Below, piece after piece: positions 1-60,929 of a DNA stretch of 64,000 nt. The stretch spans positions 82,184-146,183 of the forward strand of contig CAWFFJ010000026.1 of the NCBI GenBank assembly GCA_963814875.1. The letters run 5' to 3'. Below the pieces are notes generated by a model that saw only the letters and a program-made list of their open reading frames with translations, ran no database searches and was not told where the DNA came from. Within the stretch, counting starts at the first letter, position 1. Every line of letters begins with the position of its first letter. The DNA comes from an uncultured Acidobacteriota bacterium (GTDB lineage: Bacteria > Acidobacteriota > Thermoanaerobaculia > Thermoanaerobaculales > Sulfomarinibacteraceae). The position numbers were made by a program, and so were the translations under genes.

Positions 1-1
1 C

Positions 2-812
2 GGCTTCGTCGACGTCATCTACTTCGGCACCACCAACGGCTACATCTACAAGCTCGACCTCACCGACGAGGCTGTTCTCACCGATGACGGGACCAACGTG
101 CCGACGGGCATGCGGGTCAGCAACTGGACTTTGCAGCCGATGTACTCCTTCGGAGCCGACATCAAGTTCTACACGAGGCCCGTCCTCGTCCCGTTACGCT
201 TCGACGTCAACGGTTACCAATACGCCCTCGCGATGGGATCCGGCGACCGCGACAACATCGACCAGGAGAGCGCCATGGTCGAGAATTTCTACTTCGTGCT
301 CGAGAATACTCCGGAGGGCAGAGGTAACGAGGCCAACCTCCAGGGTGTCGCCTACGATGCCGACCCGGCGACCGCTGGAACGAACTACTTCAATCCCAAC
401 GGCGACGGCGGGGTGGACCCGACCTTCGGGTGGTACCTCATCCTGCGCGCCGGCGAGAAAGTCTCGACCGATGCCGTGGTGGTGGGTCAGACCGTGGTCT
501 TCCCGACCTTCGTGCGCACGCCGCTAATCCGGACAACCCGCCGCACCGATGGCGACGGCAACGTCATCTGCCAGGCCTCGGGCCTCGGACGCCTGTACCA
601 GGTCAACTACCTCAACGCCAATCCGATCGGCGATGTGCGCGGTGTGGATACCGACTCGGGCTGATCACCGGTCTCGTGCCGGCCGGCGGTGGCGGCACCT
701 CTGGCAATGGCGACGACACCGACTACATTGCCACCGGCCAGGCGGCCGGGTTCGAGGTAGGCCGCTGCCGAACAACAGCGGAACACGCGTGACGAACTGG
801 CGGCAGGAGTAA
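2..812 (+). pseudogene. pilY1: PilY1-like type IV pilus tip adhesin, C-terminal beta-propeller part. The 5' end lies outside the window. The intact ORF stops at 664, but coding signal appears to continue to TAA 810-812 through two 1-nt frame changes.
   Basis: The translation GFVDVIYFGTTNGYIYKLDL...GRLYQVNYLNANP is typical of PilY1/PilC propeller blades. After TGA 662-664, GC3-rich codons continue in frame 1 (LITGLVPAGGGGTSGNGDDTDYIATGQAAGFEV). From about 765 they continue in frame 0 (LPNNSGTRVTNWRQE, then a stop). Confidence 0.6.
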
Positions 813-815
813 GGC

Positions 816-1621
816 ATGCGGATCACGAAGGTCGTCATTGGACTGCTCAGCGGGCTCCTCGTCGCCGCCGCGGCGCGCGGTCGAGATCCCGCTGAAGAAC
901 GGCCCGACGCTCGATGCTTCGTCCTACACGATCACCGGCTCCTACCTGATGGCAACCCTCACCAATGGGCAGCGGGTCGCTTACGACGTTGCGGATGTCG
1001 ACCTCGAGGCGCTCCAGCGCGCCGAGGCGGCCACCGATGCGCCGGCGGAGATCGCGGCGCAGCCGGAGGAGGCCAGGCCACCATCGATTATGGATGCGCG
1101 CGCTGCCGAGGACCGTCCTCGGTCCGTCGTCACGATCACCGACGACGACGTGGCGCCTGCACGTTCCGAGGAGGAGGCGGGTGCCGCAGGAGAGCCAGCC
1201 GTCGCGGCGGGGCCGCCGGCTGGATATACCGAGGGCAGCGGGGTGGTGGTCGACCGGCTTCGAGTCGATCAGGTCGATGAAGGGATCTGGGACGTCCGCG
1301 GCGTCATCGTCAACCGCGGTTCTGCGCCCGCTCGGGATGTCCGCGTTCGGATCGACCTCACTAACGCGGCGGGCGAGGCGCTGGCCTCGCCGACCCTCGA
1401 GCTGTCGCCAGAGCTCGGCATCGGGGAGACCGCGTCTTTCTCCCACCACGTCGAGGCCCCGGAACAGCCGGCGGCGAAGATCCGGGTGTTCTGGACGCAG
1501 GCATCGACGCCAACACAGGCGAACGAAGGTGCGCGCGATACGGGCCCTGCCGCGGCGAAGCCTCAGGGAACGGGAGATACGCCGCAGCCGGTGCCGCAGC
1601 GCCGCAATTCGAGGCTGACCG
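816..1621 (+). pseudogene. Secreted protein of unknown function with an FxLYD/DUF3426-like beta-sandwich C-terminal part. There is an apparent frameshift inside the signal-peptide coding region, and the 3' end is unresolved.
   Basis: ATG 816 has an AGGAG Shine-Dalgarno 7 nt upstream and encodes the signal peptide MRITKVVIGLLSGLLVAAAA. That frame turns to Arg-rich junk after about 876. The plausible mature protein (AVEIPLKNGPTLDASSYTITG...VRGVIVNRGSAPARDVRVRIDLTNAAGEAL) is in the +1 frame (formal ORF 838-2136). GC3 bias in that frame is lost after about 1620. Confidence 0.45.
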
Positions 1622-2140
1622 GTGCGACGTTTCGGCCGCCTGTCAGCTCTGATTGCGGCAGCCCTCGTGCTGACTGTCGCTGCTGTTGCCGTCGTTCTGC
1701 TGCACCGGCACTGGGCCGGGCGAGTCCAGTCGCCTGCAGGCGGACTGTCGCCATCGCCGAGCCCGTCGAGCGTTTTCCTGTCCACCGTCAAGGTGACGAC
1801 GGACGGTCCTCGGGTCGCTATCGGCAGACTCTACGCGTCTCCCGAGCGGATGGGAACGTGGTGGGAGTTCACTGTCATCTGCAAGGAGATCGAGGGCTGC
1901 CACGACGAGCTCGAGTTCGAAATCGAATACCGAGAGGGCGGCCATGCGGGCCGTGTGACCCATCGAAGGGTCGTCGACCTTCCATCTCTCGGGCAGATGA
2001 AGATCCGCTTCATGGAGCGTCAACAGCACCCGGTCGATGCTGTCGACAGTGTCACCGTGCACTCGCTTCGGAAGATCACCACAGAGCCGGGTCAGCGCGG
2101 GCCGGCGGCAACACCGAGGCCGCGCACCATTCATGATTAG
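1622..2140 (+). CDS. Hypothetical membrane-anchored protein with an N-terminal signal anchor and a roughly 120-aa domain
   Basis: GTG start 3 nt after a frame-2 TGA. The transmembrane segment is MRRFGRLSALIAAALVLTVAAVAVVLL, followed by non-repetitive sequence (TWWEFTVICKEIEGCHDELEFEIEYREGG) with reasonable GC3 bias. Confidence 0.6.
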   Translation: MRRFGRLSALIAAALVLTVAAVAVVLLHRHWAGRVQSPAGGLSPSPSPSSVFLSTVKVTTDGPRVAIGRLYASPERMGTWWEFTVICKEIEGCHDELEFEIEYREGGHAGRVTHRRVVDLPSLGQMKIRFMERQQHPVDAVDSVTVHSLRKITTEPGQRGPAATPRPRTIHD

Positions 2141-2226
2141 GGCGCCTGACGTGGACCTCGCCTCCGCGTGGCGACCTTCTCAGGGCATGCCCCTCGACTC
2201 CCGTGGACTCTCGAAGGGGCGCGGGA

Positions 2227-4122
2227 TTACTTCGACGCCCCGCCCTCCCGGCGGGCCAGGATCGCCTCGATCTCGTCCATGATCCGGTTCATCCGCGACA
2301 GCAGGGCCTGGTAGGGCGCCGGGGTCGCGAGGTCGACCCCTGCGTCCTTGAGGAGCTGGTAGGGGTAGGCCGATCCGCCCGACCTGAGCACGCTCAGGTA
2401 GCGCTCCCTGGCGCCCGGCTGGCCGGCGAGGACCTCGTCGGCGAACAGCGATGAAGCGGCCAGCGAGGTGGCGTACTGGTAGACGTAGAAGTTGTAGTAG
2501 AAGTGGGGGATGTAGGCCCACTCTACGGTGTAGGCGTCGTCCACGGTGAGCACGCCCTGGTCCTGGCCGTGATAGCGGCGCAGGAGCTCGCCGTACTCCT
2601 TGGTCAGGCGTTGGCCCGACAGCGCCTCGCCCTTTTCGACCAGCTCGTGGATCCGGAGCTCGAACTCGGCGAACATCGCCTGCCGGAAGAAGGTCCCGCG
2701 CAGGCCCTCGAGCGCCGAGCCCAGGTAGTACAGACGCTCGGTATCGTCCTTCGCGGTCGCCAGCATGTGGTCGAGCAGCAGCGCCTCGTTGAACGTCGAG
2801 GCGACCTCGGCGACGAAGATCGAGTAGTCGGAGGTCGCAAACGGCTGCGCCGCGTTCGCGAGGAAGGAGTGCATGGCGTGGCCCCACTCGTGGGCCATCG
2901 TGCTCACCGACTCGTAGTCGTCGTTGTAGTTCAACAGGACGTAGGGGTGGACGTCGTAGACGGAGCCGTTGGAGTAGGCCCCGGAGCGCTTGCCGGGCTG
3001 CGGGAAGACGTCCATCCAGCGCTGTCCGAAGCCGCGACGGACGGTGTCGACGTAGTCCTTGCCGAGCGGGGCGAGCGCGTCGAGCACGACCTTCTCGCCG
3101 GTTGCGACCGGAAACGTGAGGTCGGCGGAGACCAGCGGCGGGTAGATGTCGTAGTAGCGCAGGTCCGCGATGCCGAGCATTCGACCGCGCAGCTTGAAGT
3201 AGCGGTACAGGGTCGGCAGGCCGTCGTTGGTCGCCGCGATGAGTGTTCGGTAGACCGCCTCGGGCACGTTAGTGCGGTCGAGGGCGGCGGCGAGCGCGTT
3301 CGGGTAGTTGCGCGCCTTGGCGTAGAACATGTCGCGCTTGACCTGGGAGTAGAGGGTGACGCCGCAGGTCCGCTCCCACTCCTTCCAGGTCTTCCAGAAG
3401 GTGTCGAAGACCAGCTTGCGGTCGGCCCGGTTCTCCGTCGCGCGCCAGCGGGTGTAGCCGGACTGGTCGAGGCGTGCAGAGGTGCCGTCGGACAGCGTGA
3501 CCGTCGGCCACGGCATGTCGGCGTTGGCCAGGATCGAGTAGATCGAGTAGGGCGCATCGGACATCAGGGAGGCGTCGGCGATCACACCCTCGGCCTCCTC
3601 GCCGAGGGTGTGGGGCTTGCGCCGCAAGGTGTCCTCGAGGGCGTGGCGGTAGAGCTCGAGGCTCGGGTCGGCGGCGAGCAGCTCGTTGATGCGAGCCTCA
3701 CCGGCGGCGAGCAGCTCGGGCTCGATGAAGCTGGTCACGGAAGCGAAGTGGGAGCCGAGCAGGGAGGCTTCCTGGCGCAGCTCCAGGGGTCGCGCCGCAC
3801 GGGTGTCCTCGTCGGACAGCATCGAGGCGTAGGACTCGACGCGCTGCATCTCCTTGAGTGCGCCGTAGAGGCTGTCGAAGCACCCCTTGAGGCGCGCTGC
3901 GCTCTCGGTCAGGTGTCCCTGGCACTCGGCGAGGGGGACCAGCCGACTCTCGATGTCCTGCCGGGCCTGCTGCCAGGCCGCCTCATCGGGGTAGATGTCG
4001 GCCAGGTTCCAACGGTAGGCCTGAGCGTCGTCCATGCTGGAGTCCTCCTGCGCCGGCACGGCCGGCGCCACGAGCGCGAGCGCGAGCGCGGCGGGGATGA
4101 TCGACCGTCCGAAGAGCGTCAT
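2227..4122 (-). CDS. pepF: M3-family oligoendopeptidase F with a signal peptide
   Basis: 631 aa with the HEXXH zinc motif in MAHEWGHAMHS. Length and overall similarity pattern fit M3B PepF. The N-terminal signal peptide is MTLFGRSIIPAALALALVAPAVPAQ. Confidence 0.9.
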   Translation of the reverse strand: MTLFGRSIIPAALALALVAPAVPAQEDSSMDDAQAYRWNLADIYPDEAAWQQARQDIESRLVPLAECQGHLTESAARLKGCFDSLYGALKEMQRVESYASMLSDEDTRAARPLELRQEASLLGSHFASVTSFIEPELLAAGEARINELLAADPSLELYRHALEDTLRRKPHTLGEEAEGVIADASLMSDAPYSIYSILANADMPWPTVTLSDGTSARLDQSGYTRWRATENRADRKLVFDTFWKTWKEWERTCGVTLYSQVKRDMFYAKARNYPNALAAALDRTNVPEAVYRTLIAATNDGLPTLYRYFKLRGRMLGIADLRYYDIYPPLVSADLTFPVATGEKVVLDALAPLGKDYVDTVRRGFGQRWMDVFPQPGKRSGAYSNGSVYDVHPYVLLNYNDDYESVSTMAHEWGHAMHSFLANAAQPFATSDYSIFVAEVASTFNEALLLDHMLATAKDDTERLYYLGSALEGLRGTFFRQAMFAEFELRIHELVEKGEALSGQRLTKEYGELLRRYHGQDQGVLTVDDAYTVEWAYIPHFYYNFYVYQYATSLAASSLFADEVLAGQPGARERYLSVLRSGGSAYPYQLLKDAGVDLATPAPYQALLSRMNRIMDEIEAILARREGGASK

Positions 4123-6981: not shown

Positions 6982-7056
6982 CTAGAAGCCCGTCGCGAGG
7001 TCGCCGCTTCCGAGGTGGGCGTCGATCCGGTACGGACCGATCTGTGTCCCGAGCAT
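6982..7056 (-). pseudogene. 24-codon mini-ORF resembling the N-terminus of a Ser/Thr kinase. It may be a gene relic or a small leaderless ORF.
   Basis: MLGTQIGPYRIDAHLGSGDLATGF then stop. IGxYRIxxxLGxG is the usual start of Hanks kinases and the Gly-rich loop (compare IGRYEIVRTLGRGAMG in the kinase at 7922-9868). No kinase-like sequence follows in any frame. Confidence 0.25.
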
Positions 7057-13791: not shown

Positions 13792-15566
13792 GCTTCGCCG
13801 ACCCCGGGCGCCTGTGGCTGCTGGTGCTCCCGGCGGTTGCGGCCGTGGCGGCGCTGTGGCGACACACCGTTCGCCGCCGCGAGCAGCGCCAGCTGGCGAG
13901 CCCGTCGGTGTGGCTGCGGGTGATGGGCGGGACACCGGCGACCGGCCTCGTCCGCCTGCTGGCATGGGTCGCCGCGGCGACCTGTCTCGTCCTCGCCCTC
14001 GCCCGTCCCCAGTGGGGCGAGGTCCAGGGGGAGAGGTCGGTGCGCAGCCGCGACCTGGTCGTCGCCGTCGATGTCTCCGACTCCATGCGCTGCGCCGACA
14101 TTCGTCCGTCTCGACTCGTCCGGTCCCTGCAGGTGCTCAGCCGGGCTTTGCCCGAGCTTGAGGGTAACCGGGTCGGCGTGCTCGTCTTCGCTGGCGATGC
14201 CTACCCACTGGTCCCGCTCACCACAGATTTGGAGGCGGTGGCGACCTTCCTCGACGGAGTCGAGCCGGGAATGGTCGGCCTTCCGGGCTCGAACCTCGAG
14301 CGGGCCGTCAACGGTGCGGTGGATCTCCTGCCCGACGAGGGCGAGGGGCGGGTGCTGGTCCTGGTCACCGACGGCGAGAACCTCCAGGGCGACGTCGACG
14401 CGGCGAAACAGAGGCTCGCTGACGCCGGTGTTGGCCTGATCGCCATGGTCGCCGGCACCGAGCCGGGAGGTCCGATCCCGATGACCGATGACGACGGGCG
14501 GGTGCACTACAAGCGTGACGGCTCCGGCGAGACGGTGATCACGAGGGCGCGGCCCGAAGTGATGGCAGGCCTCGTCCGCGACACCGAAGGCGAGGTCATC
14601 GCCGTCGGCGACCGTGATGCGGCCCGAGAGCTCGCGAGCGCCGTCGAGCGGCTGCGCACCCGCGAGGTTGCCTCGACCCACCGGGTGGAACGGGTCGAAC
14701 GGTTCCCGATTTTTCTCGCGCTCGCGATGCTCGGGTTGGTGGTCGGCTTTGCCGCCTCGCCGTGGCGCCGCCTGACCGCGGTCGCAGCGGTGGTCGTGCT
14801 CCTCACCGCCGGGACGACGGGTGCGCAACCGGCGAACCCAGCGGCGCCGCCGGCAGCGGGTGGCGCGCCGGCGGCGATCAATGCAGGCGGGACCTCGGCG
14901 CAGGCGCCGCCGAATGCGGCCGAGGTACCGATCCCGTGGTGGCAGCGCCTGATCCCCGGCGGCAGCCGTCGGCTCGCTCGCAAGGGGGTCACCCAGTACA
15001 ACGCCGGCAAGCCGGATGCGGCCGCGTCGGATTTCGCAGGCGCCGCCCGCTTGGCACCCGGGAACCCGACCCGGCTCTATGACCTCGGGACGGCGCTGGC
15101 GGCCGGCGGGCAGGTCGATGCGGCCAGCGGACCGTTGAGTGAGGCCGAGAGGTCCGGTGTTCCGGGCGCGGCTTACAACCTGGGGACAGCCGCACTCGCC
15201 GAAGGCCAGGCGGAGCCCGCCCTCCGCTGGCTTCGCAGCGCGCTGCTCGCGAACCCTGACGACCCCGATGTCAAACGGAACTACGAGCTCGCGCTCAATC
15301 TGAAAGAACAGCAGGAGCAGCAACAACAGCAGCAGCAGGACCGGCAGCCGACCCCGGCTCCGACACCGACCGCCGGGCAGCCGACCCCGAGCCCAGGCTC
15401 CGCGACGCCGACGCCTTCCGCCGGCGGTGTCGCCGAGCCGACCCCGACACCGACCCCCGATCCGCGCAATGCGCTCTACTCCGCGCTCGAGCGCGCCGAG
15501 GCCGAGGCCCGGCAGAAGATGCAGCGACCGACCCCGCAGCCGGTGAAGGTGGAGAAGGACTGGTGA
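13785..15566 (+). CDS. batB: BatB-like vWA + TPR protein with a poly-Gln and Pro/Thr-rich tail
   Basis: Has the vWA motif RDLVVAVDVSDSM and TPR-like repeats (AAYNLGTAALAEGQAEPALRWLRSALLANPDDP). The QQEQQQQQQQ run is at 15309-15338. Confidence 0.85.
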   Translation: MVSFADPGRLWLLVLPAVAAVAALWRHTVRRREQRQLASPSVWLRVMGGTPATGLVRLLAWVAAATCLVLALARPQWGEVQGERSVRSRDLVVAVDVSDSMRCADIRPSRLVRSLQVLSRALPELEGNRVGVLVFAGDAYPLVPLTTDLEAVATFLDGVEPGMVGLPGSNLERAVNGAVDLLPDEGEGRVLVLVTDGENLQGDVDAAKQRLADAGVGLIAMVAGTEPGGPIPMTDDDGRVHYKRDGSGETVITRARPEVMAGLVRDTEGEVIAVGDRDAARELASAVERLRTREVASTHRVERVERFPIFLALAMLGLVVGFAASPWRRLTAVAAVVVLLTAGTTGAQPANPAAPPAAGGAPAAINAGGTSAQAPPNAAEVPIPWWQRLIPGGSRRLARKGVTQYNAGKPDAAASDFAGAARLAPGNPTRLYDLGTALAAGGQVDAASGPLSEAERSGVPGAAYNLGTAALAEGQAEPALRWLRSALLANPDDPDVKRNYELALNLKEQQEQQQQQQQDRQPTPAPTPTAGQPTPSPGSATPTPSAGGVAEPTPTPTPDPRNALYSALERAEAEARQKMQRPTPQPVKVEKDW

Positions 15567-29941: not shown

Positions 29942-30538
29942 ATGGCGCTCGACCTGAACGACAAACCCTGGTACGTGGCGCTGATCGTCGGCCTCGTCCT
30001 CGGTGGCGCGCTGTATGCCGCGATGCACTTCTACGTTTTCGAGGACATCCGTGCGGACATCGCGAGCCGCGAGACGAACATCGCCAAGCTCGAGCGCGAG
30101 ATCGAGAAGGGACGCGCGGCCCAGCGCGACCTGCCCAAGCTCGAGGAGGAGATTCGCAACGATGAGCTCGAGCTCGACCGGCTGAAGCAGATCCTGCCGA
30201 CGCGGCGCGAAACCGACCGGCTGATCAAGAAGGTTCGCCAGCTCACCGAGGCCGGTCACTTCACGCTCGTCCGCTTCACGCCTCAGCCCTTCGTCGAGAA
30301 AGACTTCTACTACGAGTGGCCGATCGCAGTGAACCTGGAGGGTACCTATCACGAGCTCGGACTTCTGTTTGACCGTCTGAGCCGCTTCTCACGAATCATC
30401 AACGTCACCGAGCTCACGATCCTGCCCGCCCGAGCGAAGGGCACGGACGCGACCATCACTGCGACATTCACCGCGCGCACCTTCATCTACAAGGACGAGA
30501 ACGCCGGAAGCCCCAAGGCGGCGGGAGGTGCCCGATGA
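29942..30538 (+). CDS. pilO: Type IV pilus assembly protein PilO
   Basis: Has a transmembrane segment, a coiled coil, and EWPIAVNLEGTYHELGLLFDRLSRFSRIINV. AGGGGAGGAG lies upstream of the start. Confidence 0.85.
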   Translation: MALDLNDKPWYVALIVGLVLGGALYAAMHFYVFEDIRADIASRETNIAKLEREIEKGRAAQRDLPKLEEEIRNDELELDRLKQILPTRRETDRLIKKVRQLTEAGHFTLVRFTPQPFVEKDFYYEWPIAVNLEGTYHELGLLFDRLSRFSRIINVTELTILPARAKGTDATITATFTARTFIYKDENAGSPKAAGGAR

Positions 30539-31056
30539 GCGTGCGGACCCTGCCACTGGCGGCCCTCGTCGCGGTCGCCGCATGGAGCGGCCCGGCGTTC
30601 GCCCAGGCGCCCGCCTCGCCGACTCCGGCGATGGCCGAGCAGCCGTTCGATGACGAGGACCTCGACGTGTCGCGCATCGACCAGATCCTGCGCGGCGAGC
30701 AGCAGGTTCTCCAGGGCGATATGTTCACCTACGATCCGGCCGGACGGCGCGACCCGTTTCAGTCCCTGCTCAATACCCGGCCCGGTGAGAAGGAGCCTGA
30801 AGTCGCGCGTCCTCCAGGCCTTGCCGGGATGTTGATCGAGGAAGTCCGGGTACAGGGCATCGTGTCGACCACGAGCGGTATACTGGCCTTCGTCCAAGGG
30901 CGCGACAAGCTCAGCTACATCATTCGGCCCGGGACCAAGCTGTTCAACGGCGAGGTCGAGCGGATTACGCCGTCCGAGGTCGTGTTCAAGCAGCAGGTGA
31001 GCGATCCGAAGCAGCTGAAACCCTACGAAGAGGTCGTCCGCAGGCTGTCGGATTAG
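30535..31056 (+). CDS. pilP: PilP-like pilus assembly protein
   Basis: Has a signal peptide. Its size and its position between pilO and pilQ fit PilP. It has a C-terminal beta-domain (GIVSTTSGILAFVQGRDKLSYIIRPGTKLFNGEV). ATGA overlap with pilO. Confidence 0.7.
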   Translation: MSVRTLPLAALVAVAAWSGPAFAQAPASPTPAMAEQPFDDEDLDVSRIDQILRGEQQVLQGDMFTYDPAGRRDPFQSLLNTRPGEKEPEVARPPGLAGMLIEEVRVQGIVSTTSGILAFVQGRDKLSYIIRPGTKLFNGEVERITPSEVVFKQQVSDPKQLKPYEEVVRRLSD

Positions 31057-31078
31057 CGTGAGGGTGAAGGAAGTTCGG

Positions 31079-33570
31079 ATGAAAGTGGGGGATGGCATGA
31101 TGATCAAGAACGCCCGCATCCTGGTCGTAGCGGCGGCTTCCTTCGTGCTGCTGGGATCTGGCATCGCGGACGCGGCCACGAGCGCCGTTCCCGTTCTCGA
31201 GGGCTTGGCCACCGAGTCCGGGCCCGACGGGCCGGTGATCCGACTGCGGACGAGCGGCGACCTCGATACCGTGCACTACAGCCCGCAGCCCGGCGTGTGG
31301 ATCGTGGAGATGCCCGAGGCGACGTGGGCCGAGGCAGCGGGAGTGGTCAGCGACCCGGCCATAGGTCTCGATCGCGCGGAGCTCGCCCATGTTGAGGAGT
31401 TTGGCAAGCGGGTGACCCGCCTCACGGTCTGGCTGGCCGAACCGGCCCAGCTCGACGTCGAGCGAGCGGCGGATGGTCTCGAGCTCCGCTTCCAGCCCCT
31501 GCAGGGCCCGCGGGCGGTGGTGCCGCCTAAGGTTGAGAATGACGGCGTAGAGGTCGCGTCGGCACGTGCGCCTGCGGAACCCGCAGCAGACGAGATCGTT
31601 CCCAGTGAGCGTCCGGCACTGCCTCCCGTAGTGATCGCCTCTGCCGATCAACCGGCGCCCGCCGATTCCAGGACCACCAGCGCCGCCTCCGGAGAGAGCC
31701 TCCTCGAGGTCCTCCCCGTCGCGGTCGGCGACGGCGTCCGGATCGAGCTTCGAGCCGACGGCGAGCTCGTCGGTCAGGCATTCACGCTGCCGGAGCCCGA
31801 CCGGATCGTGGTCGACCTGCCGGGGGTCGTCAACCGGGTCTCCCAGAGTGTGGTCTCGGTTGCCTCGCCTCTGGTCCGCCGAGTGCGCGTGGCCCAGTTC
31901 CGCTCTGCTCCCAACCCGGTGACTCGGGTGGTGATCGATCTCACGAGCAAGGCCGCCCACCAGCTCGTCGAAACGCCCAACGGGGCGGTTCTCATCGTTG
32001 GCGACGCCACCTCTTCCGGAGCTGGCGCCGTCGCTGTGGCGGCCGCGAGCGGCGACACCGCCGTTCGGAAGGGTGCCGGGACCATCGAGATGCACCGCTC
32101 GGCTCCGGTGGAGCCGGATCCGGCAGTCGCCGATCCGGCGACCGCCGCCCAGCCTGCAGGCCTGCCTGCCGAGCTGTTTGAGGTGCCCGAGCGCCAGGCC
32201 GCGGCCCCTGAGGCTCCGGCGCCCGACCGCAACCCGTTCGTCGCCGACCCTTCGCAGCTGATCGAATCGGCGACTCCGGGGAGGGTGCTCGATCTCCCCA
32301 CGACCACGGCGGAAACCTACAGCAGCACTGAAGTTGCCAGCCAGGAGCAGCAGTTCACCGGGGAGCCGATCACGCTCACGCTGAAGGACGCTGACATCGC
32401 CGATGTGCTCAAGACCTTCTCTGCGCTGACCAACCTCAACATCGTTCTCGACCCGGGTGTGCGCGGCTCGGTCACGGTCGAGCTGCACGACGTGCCCTGG
32501 GACCAGGCGCTCGACCTCATCCTCAAGATCAACAATCTCGACTATGTCCTCGAGAACAACGTCCTGCGCGTCGCCCCGACCAGCAAGCTTGCCAAAGAGA
32601 AGGCCGACGCGGTGAACTTCCTCAAGCAGCAGGAGTCGGCGCGACCGCTGAAGACGGTCATCAAGCCGGTCTCCTATGCCAAGGCCCAGGACATCAAACA
32701 GATCCTCACCCAGGACTCGACCCTGCTGTCCGACCGCGGCACGGTCACCATCGACGCGCGGACCAACACGCTCATCCTTCGCGACACCGTGGACCGCGTC
32801 GAAGGCGTGCTGCGACTCGTCGACATCCTCGACCAGCCGACACCGCAGGTGGTCATCGAGGGCCGGATCGTCGAGACGACCCGTGACTTTTCCTACAGCC
32901 TCGGCGTCAACTGGGGGTTCAGCGGAGTCAAGGACGCCGCCCACGGCAACGACACCGGGCTCGACTTCCCGAACAGCGCCACCGCCGACGGCAGGGTGGG
33001 GCTCGAGACCGCGGGCAACGGCACCCTGTCCTTGACCTTCGGCGACATCCTCAACACCTTCAACCTCGACTTCCTGCTCTCGGCGGCGGAGTCGGACGGC
33101 GTTGTCAAGATCGTCTCCACGCCGCGGGTGACCACCCAGAACCTGCAGCGTGCATCGATCCGCTCGGGCCTTCAGCTCCCGGTCCAGACGGTCGCCAACA
33201 ACACCGTCACCGTGCAGTACGTCGACGCGACGCTGCGCCTCGACGTGCTGCCCCAGATCACGGCCGAGGGCACCGTGATGCTGGACATCAACATCCGCAA
33301 GCAGGAGGCTCGCAGGCCCTCGGAGCAGCGGTGGCAGGCGGGAACAACGTCCCGATCTTCACCCGCGACGCCCAGACGTCGCTGCTGGTGCGGGACGGCG
33401 GCACCACGGTCATCGCCGGGATCTACCAGATCAACGATCAGAACTCCCAGGACCGAGTCCCAGGACTGTGGAAGGTTCCGATTCTCGGGCATCTCTTCAA
33501 GAACAAGACAGTCTTCAATCGGCACGACGAGCTGCTGATCTTCATCACCCCGAGAATCGTCAAGTATTAG
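31079..33570 (+). pseudogene. pilQ: Type IV pilus secretin PilQ, interrupted by one apparent 1-nt frame change near 33300-33330. This is either a genuine disruption or a sequence error.
   Basis: Has a signal peptide, two AMIN-like segments (RIVVDLPGVV...TRVVIDLT), secretin N domains, and VVIEGRIVETTRDFSYSLGVNWGF. Homology in frame 2 stops after DINIRKQEA. The secretin C-terminus GGNNVPIFTRDAQTSLLVRDGGTTVIAGI...ELLIFITPRIVKY is in frame 1 (ORF 33331-33570). Confidence 0.85.
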
Positions 33571-33583
33571 GTGGAGGCAGACG

Positions 33584-34207
33584 ATGAAACCCTTCGTCCA
33601 GGTGAGCGTCATCGCGGTCGTCGCCGCTCTCGCTGTGTCGTGTGGCGGCAACAGCACGCTCAACGACACCCAGGCGGTGGTCGTGCTTTCGGTGAACATC
33701 GACAAGTACACGCCCGACGTCCCCGTCTGCTTCCCGATCGACCTCGTGATCGAGAACATGAGCGTCAACTCCCAGGCCAAGGACCCGACGACCGGGCTCA
33801 CCAGCAACCAGGACGTCGTCCTGTCACGGTGGGTCGTGACGCCCTACCGTACCGACGGCGGGACCGCGGTCTCGCCGGCGTGGAGCCACGACCTCGACGT
33901 CTACGTCCCTGCTGGCGGCACTGCGACCCTCAACAACTACCGGGTCTATCCGGCGGAGTACCTGACCCAGGCGCCGCTGATCTATCTGCTGCCGGAGAAC
34001 GGCGGCTTCGACCCCGAAACCGGCAACCGCAACATCCGGGAGACCCTCAAGGTCGAGATCTTCGGCCAGACCGTGTCCGGCAAGAGTGTCTCCGTCGTCT
34101 TCCACGTCGCCTTCAACTTCTCGTGCGATGGAGGCGGGACGCCCACCGGACCGACGCCCACGCCTCAGGCCACGCCGAAGGCGATGCTGGGCGACGGGCA
34201 GAACTAG
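33584..34207 (+). CDS. Lipoprotein of unknown function directly downstream of pilQ
   Basis: Has a lipobox (VVAALAVS-C-GGN) and the Shine-Dalgarno GGTGGAGG. It is beta-rich, with a Pro/Thr tail. I recognised no known family. Confidence 0.75.
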   Translation: MKPFVQVSVIAVVAALAVSCGGNSTLNDTQAVVVLSVNIDKYTPDVPVCFPIDLVIENMSVNSQAKDPTTGLTSNQDVVLSRWVVTPYRTDGGTAVSPAWSHDLDVYVPAGGTATLNNYRVYPAEYLTQAPLIYLLPENGGFDPETGNRNIRETLKVEIFGQTVSGKSVSVVFHVAFNFSCDGGGTPTGPTPTPQATPKAMLGDGQN

Positions 34208-34224
34208 GGCGGGGGGCAGGCACC

Positions 34225-37200
34225 ATGAAAAGAGCTCTCACCTGCATCGCAATTCTCGGGCTGATCGTGCTCGCCTCGTGCTCTGGCGACAGCCCGTCGC
34301 CGCCACCGGTGCCGACCCCGGCGAGCACGACCTGGGCGATCACCTCGCTCACCGTGTCGGACTCGACGCTCTACGTCGGCTCGACGGTCACCGTGACCGC
34401 GACGGTGACCAAGGACGGTTCCCCGGCGCCCGACGGGACCGCCGTCGAGTTTTCGATTGGCGGTGTTGTGCTGGCCAATGTCGCGACCAGCGGCGGTAGG
34501 GCAACGGCCGATTTCGTGGCGACAGCCAAAGGCATATACACGATCCAGGCCCGGGTCGTCGGCGTCACCCGCACGGTAGACGTGAGCTACGTCCTCCCCG
34601 AACCGGACGGCACCCTGCTGATCTACAACGTGAACCCCACCGAGGGCGCGATCGCGGGCGGCGAGCAGGTCACGCTCACCGGCAACGGTATCCGCGGCCC
34701 GGTCGAGGTCACCTTCACGGTCAACGGGACGGCGTTCCCGGCACGGGTACTGAGCGTGGTGCCGTCCACCTCGAGCTCGCCCGGCACGATCACCGTCGAG
34801 ACCCCGCGGGTCACGGTCGCCGACCCGACCATTGACAACCTTGCAACCATCACCGTCAAGACCGCGGTCGGGACGGGCAAGGACCAGAGTCAGGTCCTCA
34901 CCGATGCCTTCACCTTCCTGCGCGAGATCTTCACCCCGGTGATCTACAGCGTGTACCCGGACCAGGGCACCGCGCGCGGCGGTGACCAGGTGACGATCCT
35001 CGGCGCCAACCTCGTCGGCGTGACACGGGTGACCTTCGGCGGGCGCGAGGCCCAGGTGGTCAGCGAAAGCGCTGACGGCCACCAGGTGACGGTCATTACC
35101 CCGCCCTACGGCGCGACTCCGCTGCAAGACAACACTCCCGTGACGGTCGTGGTCGAGACTCCCGGCGGCAACGCCAGCAAGGACGACGCGTTCATCTACC
35201 TGGCCGACCAGCCGCAGCCGAGCATTGCGGGGCTCGCCCCCGCGGCCGGCCCGATCGACGGCGGCACCCGGGTCACCATCTTCGGCTCCGGCTTCCAGTT
35301 CCCGGCGCAGGTCTTCTTCACCGCTGGCGGGGTCGCCAAGGAGGCCTCGGTCATCAGCGTCAACGACGACACCTCACCGGCCGACAACGACGAGATCGTG
35401 TGCGTGACGCCGGACTTCTCGGACAGCACTCAGACGACCCCGTTCACGGCCGACGTCCGGGTGCTCAACGTCGAGACCGGCCGCGAGGGCAGCAAGAGCG
35501 CTGCCTTCACCTACGGCGACCGCCTCTTCGTCAGCGGCAACGATCCGGCCGACGGCGGCGAGGGCACCGAGGTGACGATCTTCGGCTCCGGCTTCGTCAG
35601 CCCGCTCCAGGTGGACTACCTCGGCTTCGGTAGCCCGCTGCGGGTCGATCCCACGTCCATCTCGGGTTCTCAGATGGTGGTCCGGATGCCGGCGCCGACG
35701 AACCCGAGCTGCGCGGCCGTGACCGGCGCATTCCGTGTGCGCCTGCTCGAGAGCCCCAACAACCCGGTCGAAGGCGGCTCCTTCACCTACTTCGGCAACA
35801 CGCCGACGCTCAGCTCCATCACGCCCTCCACGGTCGACGAGATTGCCGACGGTGTCGGAGTTGATCCGTCCTCCGCTGTGCTCACCGGAAAGAACTTCTC
35901 GACCTCGGTGCAGGTCGCGATCAACGACATCCTGCTGAACTCCGGCGCCGTCCAGGCGGTCAACGACACCACCATCAACATCACTCAGCTGCCGGCGCCC
36001 AACGACCTCGGTCTGGTGTTCGACACCGTCGCCTGTGTCAATGGCGACGGCGTGGCCGGCTTCCGTAAGGTGCCCACTTCGGTCGACGTCACCGTCACCA
36101 ACACCAACGCCAACTGCAGCGACACGCTGACCAACGGGCTGACCTACCAGCCCCAGAACACGGACTGCGTGGTCGAGCCCAACATCGTGCTCGTGCCGGG
36201 CGCCGGATCGACCCTGACCCTGCCCGCCACCGGCGCGGGGAGCTGCTCGACCTTCGAGCAGGTCACCGTGCGCAACACCGGAGGGTCGACCCTCGACTGG
36301 ACGGCCGCGATCACTGGACCGTTCTCGTTCAGCGGCAGCTCGGGCGACCTGAACCGAAGCGGCTCCCTCGTGCCGGGCACGTCGAGCACCCTCGAGGTTC
36401 ACTTCTGTCCGACAGTCGACGACAACTCCAACCAGTTCGGCCAGGTCCAGTTCCTCTCGAACGACCCGAACGACAATCCGGTGACCCTCACGCTCCAGGG
36501 CCAGGAGGCCGCCGGTCAGCTCGAGCTGACGCCGGGCAACCTCAACTTCCCGTCCACCGCTGGCGGCTCGTGCAGTGCCGCGAAGCAGGCAACCATCCGC
36601 AACACCGGGCTCGACGACCTGTCGTACAACTCGACGCTGACCGGACGGTTCTTCTTCGACGCTGGCGCGAGCCAGCAGGGACCGGTGGCCGGCAGCCTGC
36701 CGCCGGGGACCGATACCCTGGTCGACATCTACTTCTGTCCGAACCTCGGTGCCAGCGGGACACTGACCGGTCAGCTCAGCGTCGACAGCGACGACCCGGT
36801 GAACCCGGTGCGAACCATCGACCTCAGCGGCGACGCCGGTGCTCCGGACATCTCCGTAACACCCAACCCGCTGATCTTCACGGAGGCCATCCCGGCGGTG
36901 GGCCCGGGACCGACCTGCTCGAGCGCCAAGCAGCTCACGATCGCGAACTCTGCTGGTGCGAGCGACGACCTCGACTTCGGGCTCACACTCGTCGGCGACT
37001 TCTACCTCAACAGCAACGCGACCGGACAGGGTCCGCAGATCGGCTCGCTGGTGCCGGGCGCGAGCCAGCCGGTCAACATCTACTTCTGCCCGGCGATGGG
37101 CTCGGTGGGTCTTGTCACCGGGACCGCCCGCGTGACCAGCAACGATCCGGATCAGCCGCTGGTAGTCAACGACCTCCAGGGAACGGCCACCGGCCCCGAG

Positions 37201-37872
37201 ATCGATGTCCTGCCCGCCTCGCTCGAGATCGAGTTCACTCCCGACGTTCCCGCCGGGAGCTGCTCCGCCACCGCCAAGACGGTGACCATCCGCAACCTCC
37301 AACCGCCCGCCTCCCTGGTGCTCGACTACTCGGTCACCATTACCGGGCCGTACTTCCTGAACTCCAACGGCACCGGTCAGGCGACTGCGGGTCAGGTCTC
37401 GATCGGCGGCTCCAAGCCTATCGACGTCTACTTCTGCCCGACGGTCGACGACAACAACGTTCAGACCGGCGTCTTCCGGATCGACTCGAACGATTTCGAC
37501 GAGTCGACCGTCAACGTGCAGCTCACCGGCAAGGAGGCCGAGCCGGACATCGCAACCACTCCGGCCGACGGCGGCACGCTGACGCTTCCGACAACCGCCT
37601 TCGGCGTGTGCTCGGCGTACAGCGACATCACCGTTGACAACAACGGGCTCGCGGACCTCGTGTTCTCGGCCACTCTGTCGGGTGCCGCCTTCGAGCTCGA
37701 AACGACCTACACCAACATTGTGGTGCCGCCGAGCGGGAGTACCACTGTCAGGGCTCGGTTCTGCCCCACTGCGGACGACGGACAGCTCTACACCGGCTCC
37801 GTGAGCATCACCAGCAACGACGTCACGAACCCGACCGTGACCATCAACCTCGAAGGTCAGGAAACTCCCTGA
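34225..37872 (+). CDS. 1215-aa surface lipoprotein: a Big-like Ig domain, about six IPT/TIG-like domains, and five tandem choice-of-anchor-D / ASH-like modules
   Basis: Has a lipobox (IVLAS-C-SGD) and an invasin-like Ig segment (VGSTVTVTATVTKDGSPAPDGTAVEF). IPT/TIG signatures repeat (P.I.S..P..G...GG..VTI.G.GF). It ends with five modules of about 110 aa. Confidence 0.85.
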   Translation: MKRALTCIAILGLIVLASCSGDSPSPPPVPTPASTTWAITSLTVSDSTLYVGSTVTVTATVTKDGSPAPDGTAVEFSIGGVVLANVATSGGRATADFVATAKGIYTIQARVVGVTRTVDVSYVLPEPDGTLLIYNVNPTEGAIAGGEQVTLTGNGIRGPVEVTFTVNGTAFPARVLSVVPSTSSSPGTITVETPRVTVADPTIDNLATITVKTAVGTGKDQSQVLTDAFTFLREIFTPVIYSVYPDQGTARGGDQVTILGANLVGVTRVTFGGREAQVVSESADGHQVTVITPPYGATPLQDNTPVTVVVETPGGNASKDDAFIYLADQPQPSIAGLAPAAGPIDGGTRVTIFGSGFQFPAQVFFTAGGVAKEASVISVNDDTSPADNDEIVCVTPDFSDSTQTTPFTADVRVLNVETGREGSKSAAFTYGDRLFVSGNDPADGGEGTEVTIFGSGFVSPLQVDYLGFGSPLRVDPTSISGSQMVVRMPAPTNPSCAAVTGAFRVRLLESPNNPVEGGSFTYFGNTPTLSSITPSTVDEIADGVGVDPSSAVLTGKNFSTSVQVAINDILLNSGAVQAVNDTTINITQLPAPNDLGLVFDTVACVNGDGVAGFRKVPTSVDVTVTNTNANCSDTLTNGLTYQPQNTDCVVEPNIVLVPGAGSTLTLPATGAGSCSTFEQVTVRNTGGSTLDWTAAITGPFSFSGSSGDLNRSGSLVPGTSSTLEVHFCPTVDDNSNQFGQVQFLSNDPNDNPVTLTLQGQEAAGQLELTPGNLNFPSTAGGSCSAAKQATIRNTGLDDLSYNSTLTGRFFFDAGASQQGPVAGSLPPGTDTLVDIYFCPNLGASGTLTGQLSVDSDDPVNPVRTIDLSGDAGAPDISVTPNPLIFTEAIPAVGPGPTCSSAKQLTIANSAGASDDLDFGLTLVGDFYLNSNATGQGPQIGSLVPGASQPVNIYFCPAMGSVGLVTGTARVTSNDPDQPLVVNDLQGTATGPEIDVLPASLEIEFTPDVPAGSCSATAKTVTIRNLQPPASLVLDYSVTITGPYFLNSNGTGQATAGQVSIGGSKPIDVYFCPTVDDNNVQTGVFRIDSNDFDESTVNVQLTGKEAEPDIATTPADGGTLTLPTTAFGVCSAYSDITVDNNGLADLVFSATLSGAAFELETTYTNIVVPPSGSTTVRARFCPTADDGQLYTGSVSITSNDVTNPTVTINLEGQETP
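36169..37869 (+). repeat. Five tandem, diverged coding repeats of about 330-350 nt inside the large lipoprotein
   Basis: Module starts are at 36169, 36511, 36838, 37189 and 37540. Each has an N-proximal Cys (GSCS, TCS or VCS) and a distal (V/I/R)(H/Y/F)FCP motif, then an SNDP-like segment ending L.G.E/A. Confidence 0.75.
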
Positions 37873-59549: not shown

Positions 59550-60847
59550 GTGCAGTCCACCTCCATGGGAAACGTGCCGGGGCCGAGACGGCTCACGGCA
59601 GCCCATACTCCTGGAATCCAGGTAATTCTAGCATCCACGACGACCACGGGCCATGCGCCGCGCAGATGTCGGGGCAGCGCCTCCGCCATTCTCCGTCTGG
59701 CCGCAACCGGACCCTTCGATGTCTCGAGCACGTCATCCGGTCGGGGAGAGCGAACCAGTACTCTTTCGGTCGCGGGGAGTAGCGTGTGCCAGGCACTTGC
59801 GCCGGTGCAGCCAGTGCCGAGGCGGGCTTCCAGGCCGGGCACGGCGAGCGGAGCGCACTGGCCGGCGGTCAGCTCCTGACGCCATTCGGGCAAGGGGGCG
59901 GGAGGCTCCAGCCACACGCGGCCGCGGGCCAGGCGCAAGCGCCAGCGGCCGGCCAGAGCCAGCCCCCGCGGGGTTCCATTTTCGATCAACCCGTGGAGGA
60001 GCTCGATCTGGCGCCGGGTCACGGAGCCGATTCCCCACCGGAGCGCCTCGGCGTGGAGCCAGCGGGTCCGCAGTGCCCGCGGTGCGGCCGCGAGGTCGGC
60101 CGACGGCACGCCGCCCTGGGGGTGCCATGGGTCGAGCCGGCCGATCAAAGGCGCGGCGGCGGCGGCGAGGCAGGCGTCGTCCTCGGCCAGGGCCGCGGCG
60201 AGGGCGACCAGGTGATCGCGGACGCGTGGCGATGCGGCTTCGAGAGCCGGAAGGAGGTGGTGGCGCACCCGGTTGCGCGGATGGCGCAGGTCGCGGTTCG
60301 AGCTGTCCTCCCTCCAACTCAGCCCTTTCGCCTCGAGCCAGACAGTAATCTCGACGCGTCCCCACGGCAGCAGCGGGCGCACGATTCGGCCGTCTTGGCT
60401 GCGGGAAGCGATGCCGGCCAGGGCCCGCGGGCCCCCACCGCGGAGCAGCTGGACGAGAACGCCCTCGGCAACGTCATCGCGGTGGTGAGCAGTGGCCACC
60501 GCAGCCGCGCCGGTGCGCGACGCGAGCTCGAGCAGAGCCCGATAGCGCAGGCGCCGCCAACCGGCCTCACGTCCCTCGGCCGGGCTGCGCTCGGGCTCCA
60601 GGTGGACGACGTGAAAGCGCAACCCGAGATCATCGGCGAGCCTGCGGCAGAAGGCCTCGTCGCCGTCCGCCTCCGCACCGCGGGTGTGGTGGTGGACGTG
60701 AGCCACTTCGAGCTCGAACCCGGCGTCGGCCAGCAGGTGGAGCAGGGCGACCGAGTCCCGACCACCCGAGACGGCGACCATCAGCCGCCGCCCGACGAGG
60801 TCGGGAAACGCGCGCTCGATATGGCGGGGAAACCCGTCCAGAGACAT
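59546..60847 (-). CDS. tilS: tRNA(Ile)-lysidine synthetase
   Basis: Has the PP-loop VAVSGGRDSVALLHLL. The length is 433 aa. ATGA overlap with hpt. Confidence 0.9.
   Translation of the reverse strand: MSLDGFPRHIERAFPDLVGRRLMVAVSGGRDSVALLHLLADAGFELEVAHVHHHTRGAEADGDEAFCRRLADDLGLRFHVVHLEPERSPAEGREAGWRRLRYRALLELASRTGAAAVATAHHRDDVAEGVLVQLLRGGGPRALAGIASRSQDGRIVRPLLPWGRVEITVWLEAKGLSWREDSSNRDLRHPRNRVRHHLLPALEAASPRVRDHLVALAAALAEDDACLAAAAAPLIGRLDPWHPQGGVPSADLAAAPRALRTRWLHAEALRWGIGSVTRRQIELLHGLIENGTPRGLALAGRWRLRLARGRVWLEPPAPLPEWRQELTAGQCAPLAVPGLEARLGTGCTGASAWHTLLPATERVLVRSPRPDDVLETSKGPVAARRRMAEALPRHLRGAWPVVVVDARITWIPGVWAAVSRLGPGTFPMEVDCT
59625..59633 (-). promoter_or_regulatory. Candidate extended -10 (TGcTAGAAT) inside the tilS 3' end, serving hpt-ftsH
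   Basis: The minus strand reads GGATGCTAGAATTACC, about 75 nt upstream of ATG 59549. Confidence 0.35.
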
Positions 60848-60854
60848 CGGGGAG

Positions 60855-60929
60855 TGGTGGCGGTGGGTGGAATTGAACCACCGACACGGGGCTTATGAGA
60901 CCCCTGCTCTGCCGCTGAGCTACACCGCC
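60855..60929 (-). tRNA. tRNA with anticodon CAU, either elongator Met or the Ile2 lysidine substrate. CCA is encoded.
   Basis: The reverse complement is GGCGGTGTAGCTCAGCGGCAGAGCAGGGGTCTCATAAGCCCCGTGTCGGTGGTTCAATTCCACCCACCGCCACCA. It folds as a cloverleaf with a 7-bp acceptor stem, GTTCAAT T-loop and CTCATAA anticodon loop. The G1-C72 pair argues against an initiator. Confidence 0.88.

Follow-up and report, generated by a model that had tools for sequence, protein, structure and literature searches.

Gene content and reading frames at the pilY1-like locus

The window (the whole 64,000-nt stretch analyzed here) begins inside a PilY1-like gene, whose codons start at positions equal to 2 modulo 3, and the 3′ part of this gene is followed by gene 2, encoding a secreted FxLYD protein, and gene 3, encoding a small membrane protein. 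The pilus-linked gene pilQ lies further downstream. The features of both regions are collected in Table 1.

Table 1. Features of the pilY1-like locus and of pilQ in the window, with the reading frame of each segment
Feature	Coordinates	Strand	Basis
PilY1-like gene, 3′ part (pilus tip protein, beta-propeller end), frame 2	2..525	+	tblastn L003, L007, L044
Out-of-frame patch in PilY1-like ORF	526..543	+	Alignment to alleles A and B, and translations
PilY1-like gene, frame 2 regained	544..654	+	Nucleotide alignment to alleles A and B
PilY1-like gene, frame 1 (LGLITG...GFEVG)	655..762	+	Nucleotide alignment to alleles A and B
PilY1-like gene, last codons (...LPNNSGTRVTNWRQE), frame 0	763..812	+	TAA 810-812; ending kept in orthologues
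Gene 2, start and signal peptide, frame 0	816..875	+	ATG 816; AGGAG 803-807
Gene 2, mature part, secreted, FxLYD domain ~1285-1455, frame 1	877..1605	+	NCBIfam NF038353
Gene 2, true end, frame 2	1606..1618	+	Extra A 1606, then ATT CGA GGC TGA (...QRRIRG-stop)
Gene 3, 172 aa, one N-terminal membrane helix, intact, frame 2	1622..2140	+	GTG 1622; conserved
pilQ secretin gene, frame 2 (AMIN, STN, Secretin_N, first half of Secretin)	31058..33310	+	Pfam
5-nt insertion CGCAG breaking pilQ	33311..33315	+	Alignment to L086, 95% nt identity
pilQ, last ~84 codons, frame 1 (second half of Secretin), stop 33568-33570	33316..33570	+	PF00263

The PilY1-like open reading frame stops at TGA 662-664, and the coding signal carries on in frame 1 and then in frame 0. 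This reading of the gene tail, made in an earlier note on the same DNA, is confirmed by the orthologues, which share the frame-0 ending: R[VI]TNWRQE-stop is the C-terminal end in L001, L003, L007 and L044 as well as in two close alleles, A and B, and it matches the end of the window's frame 0 rather than position 664, so the reconstruction stands. Shift sites were placed by nucleotide alignment to the two close alleles instead of by distant orthologues alone, with which the first placement (e.g. between DSG and LITG) was a few nucleotides off; the exact sites lie within, or a few nucleotides from, the ranges estimated earlier. Six frame-shifting indels were identified within 1.1 kb (525/526, 543, 654/655, 762/763, 875/876, and 1606). 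One base is absent from the window at 654/655 (−1), where allele A has T and allele B has C, and another at 762/763 (−1). The first two indels, which the earlier note does not mention, form a compensated pair, with a base missing at 525/526 (−1) and an extra G at 543 (+1), and leave six codons out of frame within an apparently intact open reading frame. In frame 1 this patch reads NPDNPP, corresponding to a conserved DPD[DN]PP motif also found in L003, whereas the open frame 2 gives LIRTTRR. After each shift the coding signal and the conserved motifs are intact, with no in-frame stops and a GC3 of ~0.8-0.9 in the corrected frames.

The three-frame reconstruction of the tail comprises 271 residues, with which L003, L007, and L044 align throughout in a single frame. 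The alignment of L001 falls into two pieces because this relative has a frameshift of its own, a 1-nt insertion in pilY1, which we counted against an assembly origin of the window's breaks. A Pfam search with the 271-aa tail alone gave no match, the tail being the last quarter of proteins that match PF05567 (T4P_PilY1), as the full-length orthologues do (L003, 73 bits; L044, 83 bits) and, in precomputed matches, alleles A and B. It is through the C-terminal beta-propeller of these orthologues and alleles that the window gene can be assigned to the PilY1/PilC tip-protein family. In L003 the orthologue is preceded by genes for a PilW-like protein (N-terminus KGFTLIELLV), a PilX-like protein, and a vWA/PA14 protein, and in L084 a PA14 protein is encoded upstream of pilY1 together with a 180-aa product; judged on these two, pilY1 would belong to a minor-pilin cluster. 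A protein search with the reconstructed tail returned nothing at an E value of 1e-3 or better, and a JGI metagenome scan with it found no relative.

Gene 2 begins at an ATG with AGGAG 8 nt upstream, 3 nt after the TAA that ends pilY1. Its signal peptide in frame 0 and mature part in frame 1 had been noticed before, and the split is borne out by the orthologues (P0001-P0007, 257-265 aa), in which signal peptide and mature protein share one frame; the product of allele B, P0002, has the N-terminus MRITKVVIGLLSGLLVAAAAAAVEIPLKNG. At the junction 875/876 the window is +1 relative to allele A and −2 relative to allele B. The mature part matches NF038353 over residues 158-214 with 25.4 bits against a cutoff of 23. 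Its frame stays open until 2136, past the true end of the gene, and the earlier proposal that a separate gene nevertheless starts at GTG 1622 was correct: gene 3 is real and conserved, with 172-aa genes at the equivalent position in L082, L084, and L085. The proposed end of gene 2 at TGA 1616-1618 likewise agrees with the close alleles, in which the products end in QRRLRG (P0001) and PRIRD (P0002) at an equivalent TGA 3 nt before gene 3. The window reaches this stop through an extra A at 1606 (+1), where the spelling is CGC-CTTCGAGGCTGA in allele A and CGA-ATTCGAGACTGA in allele B. Pfam searches with the three window proteins (PilY1 tail, gene 2, and gene 3) gave no match. The trio formed by the PilY1-like protein, the predicted secreted FxLYD protein, and the predicted one-helix membrane protein is conserved in Thermoanaerobaculia-like Acidobacteriota.

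The pilQ break and the extent of frame disruption

The gene downstream of pilMNOP carries the AMIN, STN/N0, Secretin_N, and Secretin domains of PilQ. Its disruption, suspected in the earlier note, is real in the contig and consists of a 5-nt insertion, which splits the Secretin domain (PF00263) over two frames (profile positions 1-82 and 94-169, the latter with E = 3e-23). P0014 crosses the junction in frame, and the loop at the insertion site is of constant length in all 22 of the relatives read. The closest pilQ relative, L086, comes from another sample than the window, and no polymorphism is demonstrable at the insertion site.

Six-frame codon-usage segmentation of the 64 kb and tblastn of orthologous loci (~36 kb) revealed no further frame breaks. 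The indels thus number seven, all in pilus-linked genes as the earlier note had asserted of the breaks it found, and none was detected in ~50 other genes. In simulations, at least four of five breaks fell inside 960 nt of the ~58 kb of coding DNA with P ~1e-4. Three other candidate frame changes were rejected as disruptions: the one at ~22516 is yajC with its own start, that at 33566-34236 two separate lipoprotein genes, and that at 59996-60826 an intact 434-aa tilS open reading frame with a tRNA-Met upstream. The longer homopolymers of the window (G8, C8, and C7) sit in intact open reading frames, and the sequence is therefore not noisy in general. No silent cassettes or paralogous copies, looked for as a test of gene-conversion variation, occur in the window. 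In exact-product look-ups, gene 3, pepF, PilM, the lipoprotein downstream of pilQ, and the 79-aa pilQ C-terminal open reading frame were not on record.

Two in-frame alleles and the composition of the window sequence

A search for the locus in other assemblies turned up only in-frame alleles. Allele A (L082, ENA ERZ25039495; L083, Logan ERR11571143; 2 mismatches in 1468 nt) and allele B (L084, ENA ERZ25039500; L085, Logan ERR11523667; 1 mismatch in 2310 nt) were each assembled twice independently, and both are in frame throughout, with intact pilY1 (1274 and 1141 aa, respectively), gene 2 (265 aa), and gene 3 (172 aa) separated by 3-nt spacers. The PilY1 region of the window is ~82-90% identical in nucleotides to allele A (L082) and allele B (L084). 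The alternative contigs, of 6.4 and 9.2 kb, are short and span only the variable locus. A further contig from run ERR11571143 (L081) is 99.8% identical to window positions 30169-31266 and encodes an identical PilP; since L081 and allele A both occur in this run, the window population and allele A were sampled together. No paper on the run and assembly accessions was found in the literature.

The flanks of the locus are 95-100% identical between haplotypes, and internal blocks drop to 45-50%. Judged from these assemblies, the locus (3′ pilY1 and the two downstream genes) is hypervariable, with allele blocks that differ by up to ~50% between near-identical flanks. Allelic diversity of the pilY1 and minor-pilin clusters is a feature of Pseudomonas aeruginosa, and the arrangement here resembles that system in its tip adhesin, which combines a vWA-like region with a C-terminal PF05567 propeller and is encoded downstream of PilW/PilX-like minor pilins (L003 and L084), and in its highly divergent alleles between conserved flanks. 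It differs in belonging to Acidobacteriota and in having two extra conserved downstream genes that co-vary with the pilY1 tail.

Relative to the two alleles, the window has remarkably few bases of its own: 34 private substitutions versus 180 in allele A and 346 in allele B, and at third codon positions 11 versus 87 and 133 (relative-rate P of 1e-15 or lower). From 673 to 774, apart from 3 private substitutions, it has the allele A base at all 53 sites at which A and B differ; this pure A block is followed by a pure B block (785-850) and by site-by-site switching between 855 and 1465. With such a composition, the window has the look of a "hub" or mosaic and not of an ordinary third lineage. Given its 34 private substitutions, of which a cluster is found at 635-637, the window must be a real haplotype or else draw on a third one. 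A test of base-wise A/B mixing within codons (19/363) was dropped because its outcome cannot tell a consensus from a third lineage.

The indels follow the same polymorphism. All six at the locus fall on columns where A and B differ, although such columns make up 30% (P ~8e-4), and at two of the six A and B also differ in length. The length of the window at 875/876 is intermediate between A (n) and B (n+3), and at 1606 its spelling is a blend of those of A and B. Between 500 and 1610 there are ~21 substitution sites common to neither allele versus 6 indels; natural mutation is normally far less indel-rich than this.

Origin of the frame breaks

Taken together, the intact alleles, the hub-like mosaic, the position of the indels on polymorphic columns, and their confinement to the locus make it likely that the frame breaks arose in the assembly, as consensus artefacts at a locus with several divergent strain haplotypes. 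The long contig would have been assembled across the variable locus out of reads from two or more haplotypes; its consensus would pick the commoner base site by site and, wherever these haplotypes diverge in sequence or length, could be left with one base too many or too few. We infer mixed-read polishing as the mechanism, and likewise the sequencing technology, the "contig_N" names presumably pointing to a long-read assembler. At least two divergent haplotypes with shared flanks are present in the same sample set, and the window has a mosaic character, with the six indels of the locus on polymorphic columns. At the level of assemblies, the case resembles collapsed-haplotype consensus errors in its divergent haplotypes within the sample, in the short alternative contigs over the variable locus only, in the long mosaic contig with few private bases that is clean elsewhere, and in indels on polymorphic positions, including intermediate lengths. 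It may differ from them in the 5-nt pilQ insertion, at which no polymorphism was found. Another assembly from the ENA series of the alleles (L087, ERZ25039514, a 488-kb contig) has pilQ in three frames plus a compensated patch, and assemblies of this series therefore do carry such indels. The pilQ insertion and the breaks of the pilY1 locus may share a cause. Of the three explanations offered in the earlier note, locally poor sequence is thus the one favored by the intact alleles and their blending in the window.

The principal rival, which we consider unlikely, is genuine recent inactivation, that is, a real haplotype without type IV pili and with true indels in pilY1, gene 2, and pilQ. In other bacteria pili are commonly lost under pressure from phages or culture, and the confinement of seven of seven indels to pilus-linked genes, with none in ~50 others, would also be expected from selection for pilus loss and was counted against a consensus artefact. 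So was the pilQ lesion, whose 5 nt in a loop of fixed length are unlike a one-base consensus slip; some of the substitutions are, moreover, private to the window. Against inactivation, six independent 1-nt indels are crowded into 1.1 kb, with the 5′ part of pilY1 untouched and gene 3 intact on either side, although after one knockout there would be no selection for six more, and two of them form a compensated pair 18 nt apart, which nothing in a dead gene would favor. The hub-like branch is also at odds with a molecular clock, and the indels sit on A/B polymorphic columns, one with an intermediate length. Decay of the pilus system, as the earlier note had suggested, leaves no signature here besides the indels themselves: the coding signature is kept, codon bias is not lost, stops have not accumulated, and private substitutions are fewer than in A or B rather than in excess. 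The more specific proposal of a naturally pilus-defective lineage with seven indels, living beside piliated relatives in the same sample (e.g. as a phage-escape or non-adhesive variant), seems to us somewhat more doubtful still.

Slipped-strand phase variation of the Neisseria pilC type, in which repeat tracts at the shift sites would toggle the genes, is very improbable. PilC and PilY1 form one protein family, the affected genes encode surface components of the pilus, and one shift, like that of pilC, lies in a signal-peptide region, here at a short (GC)3 / (CGC)3 stretch; that shift, however, is in the downstream FxLYD gene and not in pilY1. A tandem-repeat and homopolymer search found no tract, G3 being the longest run and (GC)3 / (CGC)3 the longest repeat at the shift sites, and none occurs there in the orthologues or in either close allele, nor are the breaks common to relatives. 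The G8 and C8 runs in other parts of the window are unshifted. The analogy drawn in the earlier note is thus not supported: phase-variable genes in Neisseria carry G runs of at least 9 or dinucleotide repeats of at least 6 units, and the tract of pilC itself is G9-G20 (PMC5953494).

Programmed recoding, by which ribosomal frameshifting or transcriptional slippage would read through the breaks, accords with the coding signal continuing beyond each of them but deserves practically no credence, as it would require four to six events in two genes at sites with no X XXY YYZ heptamer and no homopolymer, and is already refuted by the orthologues: neither they nor the two close alleles change frame at these sites, so that no break is conserved.

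Under the reading as consensus artefacts, the frame breaks are most likely not a real biological feature, and the organisms would have a working operon of pilY1, gene 2, and gene 3. Annotating the contig unchanged would turn pilY1, gene 2, and pilQ into pseudogenes and hint at type IV pilus loss or phase variation, while the comparison with the alleles points to genes that are intact in the underlying cells. The main value of the case is one of caution, since hypervariable multi-allelic loci are where collapsed consensus sequences deserve distrust. The comparison also flags the trio of pilY1, FxLYD, and membrane-protein genes as a hypervariable, multi-allelic surface locus in these Acidobacteriota, and its variability is consistent with diversifying pressure on the pilus tip.

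Reading frames and gene content of the pilY1 locus

Two methods, a plot of GC3 by frame and codon-usage segmentation in all six frames, trace coding in the window (68% G+C) through frame 2 (codons starting at 2 mod 3) as far as ~660, through frame 1 to ~760 and then through frame 0 to TAA 810-812; from ATG 816 it is in frame 0 again, from ~876 in frame 1 and from ~1630 in frame 2. The ORF list is in accord with the frame plot: the first ORF stops at TGA 662-664, and the ORF 838-2136 has no stop, yet a well-formed gene begins at GTG 1622, directly past the frame-2 TGA 1616-1618. Because plot, segmentation and ORF list all show them, the four frame-change observations of the earlier note, made from the sequence alone, are literally true.

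The 271-residue tail in the window has no Pfam match on its own. A three-frame reconstruction of the first ORF aligns to the large gene of a neighbourhood (peptidase, gene 3, gene 2, large gene) whose order is kept in four contigs, L003, L001, L007 and L044. In L003 and L044 the product of the large gene contains PF05567 (PilY1 beta-propeller), and PilW-like and PilX-like minor pilin genes precede the large gene in L003. The M3 peptidase has relatives in Acidobacteriota / Thermoanaerobaculia MAGs, the best, in L003, at 78% identity. The gene 2 product is secreted and contains an FxLYD domain (25.4 bits vs a cutoff of 23); that of gene 3 has a single hydrophobic helix at its N-terminus and matches no known domain.

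A protein search with genes 2 and 3 gave gene-2 orthologues of 69-86% identity, all of 257-265 residues. The contigs that encode them carry the locus in two forms, allele A in ENA ERZ25039495 (6357 nt) and a Logan assembly of run ERR11571143, and allele B in ENA ERZ25039500 (9168 nt) and a Logan assembly of ERR11523667. The two copies mismatch at 2 bases in A and 1 in B. Both alleles have all three genes intact and 3 nt apart: pilY1 (1274 aa in A, 1141 aa in B, PF05567 in each), a 265-aa gene 2 and a 172-aa gene 3. The exact PilP of the window was found in run ERR11571143, the same run as allele A, on a contig with 99.8% identity to window 30169-31266, so the population behind the window was sampled along with allele A.

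All four pilY1 orthologues end in R[VI]TNWRQE and a stop, matching the window's frame-0 coding before TAA 810, and none stops at the position corresponding to 664. The start of gene 2 lies 3 nt past the pilY1 stop in L003, both alleles and the window, and the signal peptide and mature part of its product share one frame in L003, A and B. These orthologue ends and gene-2 frames bear out the frame reconstruction proposed earlier.

We also noticed that in A, B and L003 the genes for the FxLYD protein and the one-helix membrane protein come right after pilY1, with 3 nt between neighbours (window 816-2140), and that the same pair lies near PilY1 clusters of more distant relatives, with an intervening histidine kinase in L004 and L005. 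The pair is conserved and pilus-linked, and varies jointly with the pilY1 tail. The two proteins share similar short C-terminal tails (...TPLPY/H and ...ATPLPW in L001, L007 and L044; ...GSAY and ...RSAY in L003), a resemblance that hints at a shared C-terminal signal.

Frame-breaking differences and the mosaic character of the window

A three-way alignment (window 1-2260, allele A, allele B) gives the exact lesions, which amount to six single-site indels in 1.1 kb.

Frame-breaking differences and other features, in window coordinates
Position	Strand	Feature	Comparison or detail
525/526		missing base	hidden compensated pair with 543, inside seemingly intact pilY1 ORF
543		extra G	hidden compensated pair with 525/526
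654/655		missing base	A has T, B has C
762/763		missing base	A has T, B has A
875/876		length difference	window = A plus one base, B minus two; A and B differ by one Ala codon
1606		extra A	A reads CGC-CTTCGAGG, B reads CGA-ATTCGAGA, window reads CGCAATTCGAGG
2227-4122	-	M3 peptidase gene	
6982-7056	-	24-residue ORF, then stop	MLGTQIGPYRIDAHLGSGDLATGF; like N-terminus of Ser/Thr protein kinase
33311-33315		five extra bases in pilQ	CGCAG
34237-37872	+	large lipoprotein gene	repeated IPT/TIG and HYDIN/VesB-like Ig domains
60855-60929	-	tRNA-Met (CAT)	just upstream of tilS

Owing to the compensated pair, the conserved DPD[DN]PP motif at 526-543 stands in frame 1 (NPDNPP), and the open frame gives LIRTTRR. 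With the extra A at 1606 removed, gene 2 ends QRRIRG at TGA 1616-1618; compare QRRLRG in its orthologue P0001.

At the variable sites of this alignment the window shares its base with A in 346 cases and with B in 180, and stands alone in only 34 (133, 87 and 11, respectively, at third codon positions); equal branch lengths are rejected by a relative-rate test (P of 1e-15 or lower). The window has the A state at every A/B-variable site of 673-774, is a pure B block at 785-850, switches between A and B every one to five variable sites at 855-1465, and is 93-100% A at 1466-2240. Six private indels alongside almost no private substitutions give the window the look of a majority consensus taken site by site, not of a lineage. 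Columns differing between A and B carry all six indels, vs 30% of all columns (P ~8e-4, gap placement being somewhat free), and A/B length polymorphisms underlie two of the six. A mixed pile-up would be expected to yield a length in between (n+1, against n and n+3) and a blend out of register; homologous recombination would not.

pilQ and the remainder of the window

The Secretin domain of pilQ is split: frame 2 covers positions 1-82 of the profile, and frame 1 covers positions 94-169. The closest relative, L086 (JGI sample 3300062818; 95% DNA and 97% protein identity), crosses the junction in frame, and the loop from KQE to GG.N.PIF has a constant length in the 22 relatives read. No same-population sequence was found for the insertion site. 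ERZ25039514 contig_1965, a 488-kb sequence from the same ENA series, has its pilQ (1028-2931) spread over three frames, and this pilQ has a hidden compensated patch as well (HGNDTGLDFPNS in the +1 frame at ~2312). This is a hint in favour of a consensus artefact; as the contig was found via pilQ, it shows that such indels occur in the series, not that pilQ is special. In the window, pilQ and a small lipoprotein gene are followed directly by the large lipoprotein gene.

Six-frame segmentation revealed no other broken gene among ~55 genes, and there was no split match across the ~36 kb covered by orthologous loci. The longest homopolymers (G8 at 44601, C8 at 46623, C7 at 16188) are not tied to a frame break. 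The problem is therefore confined to the variable locus and pilQ; in simulation, the chance that at least four of five breaks fall inside 960 nt of 58 kb is P ~1e-4. Three candidate breaks were rejected: yajC, which has a start of its own, accounts for ~22516, two separate genes occupy 33566-34236, and 59996-60826 is an intact tilS ORF (434 aa, despite a poor score in the codon-usage model) adjoining tRNA-Met. The kinase-like ORF may be left over from a gene or be due to chance.

Origin of the frame changes

We hold with reasonable confidence that the frame changes most likely stem from haplotypes collapsed into one consensus at a hypervariable pilus-tip locus. The main rival, genuine recent inactivation, we consider rather unlikely. 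The window does have a few private substitutions (e.g., 635-637), pilQ is broken by a 5-nt insertion, and breaks would likewise be restricted to pilus genes under selection for pilus loss; in L001, a MAG of an unrelated member of the Acidobacteriota, pilY1 has a split of its own, made by a single inserted A (GTC-A-GTGGAC, ~13890-13900). But codon bias and motifs are intact, and the compensated pair, the paucity of private substitutions and the clustering of breaks all speak against decay. Slipped-strand phase variation, raised in the earlier note, requires a repeat tract such as the G9-20 of Neisseria pilC (PMC5953494), whereas the sites here reach at most G3 or three repeat units; no gene-conversion cassettes were found within the window. 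Programmed frameshifting is excluded, since no break is common to any relative.

The frame changes are confirmed and more sharply placed, but as a biological feature they are probably not real. The multi-allelic pilY1 / FxLYD / membrane-protein module is real and of mild interest.
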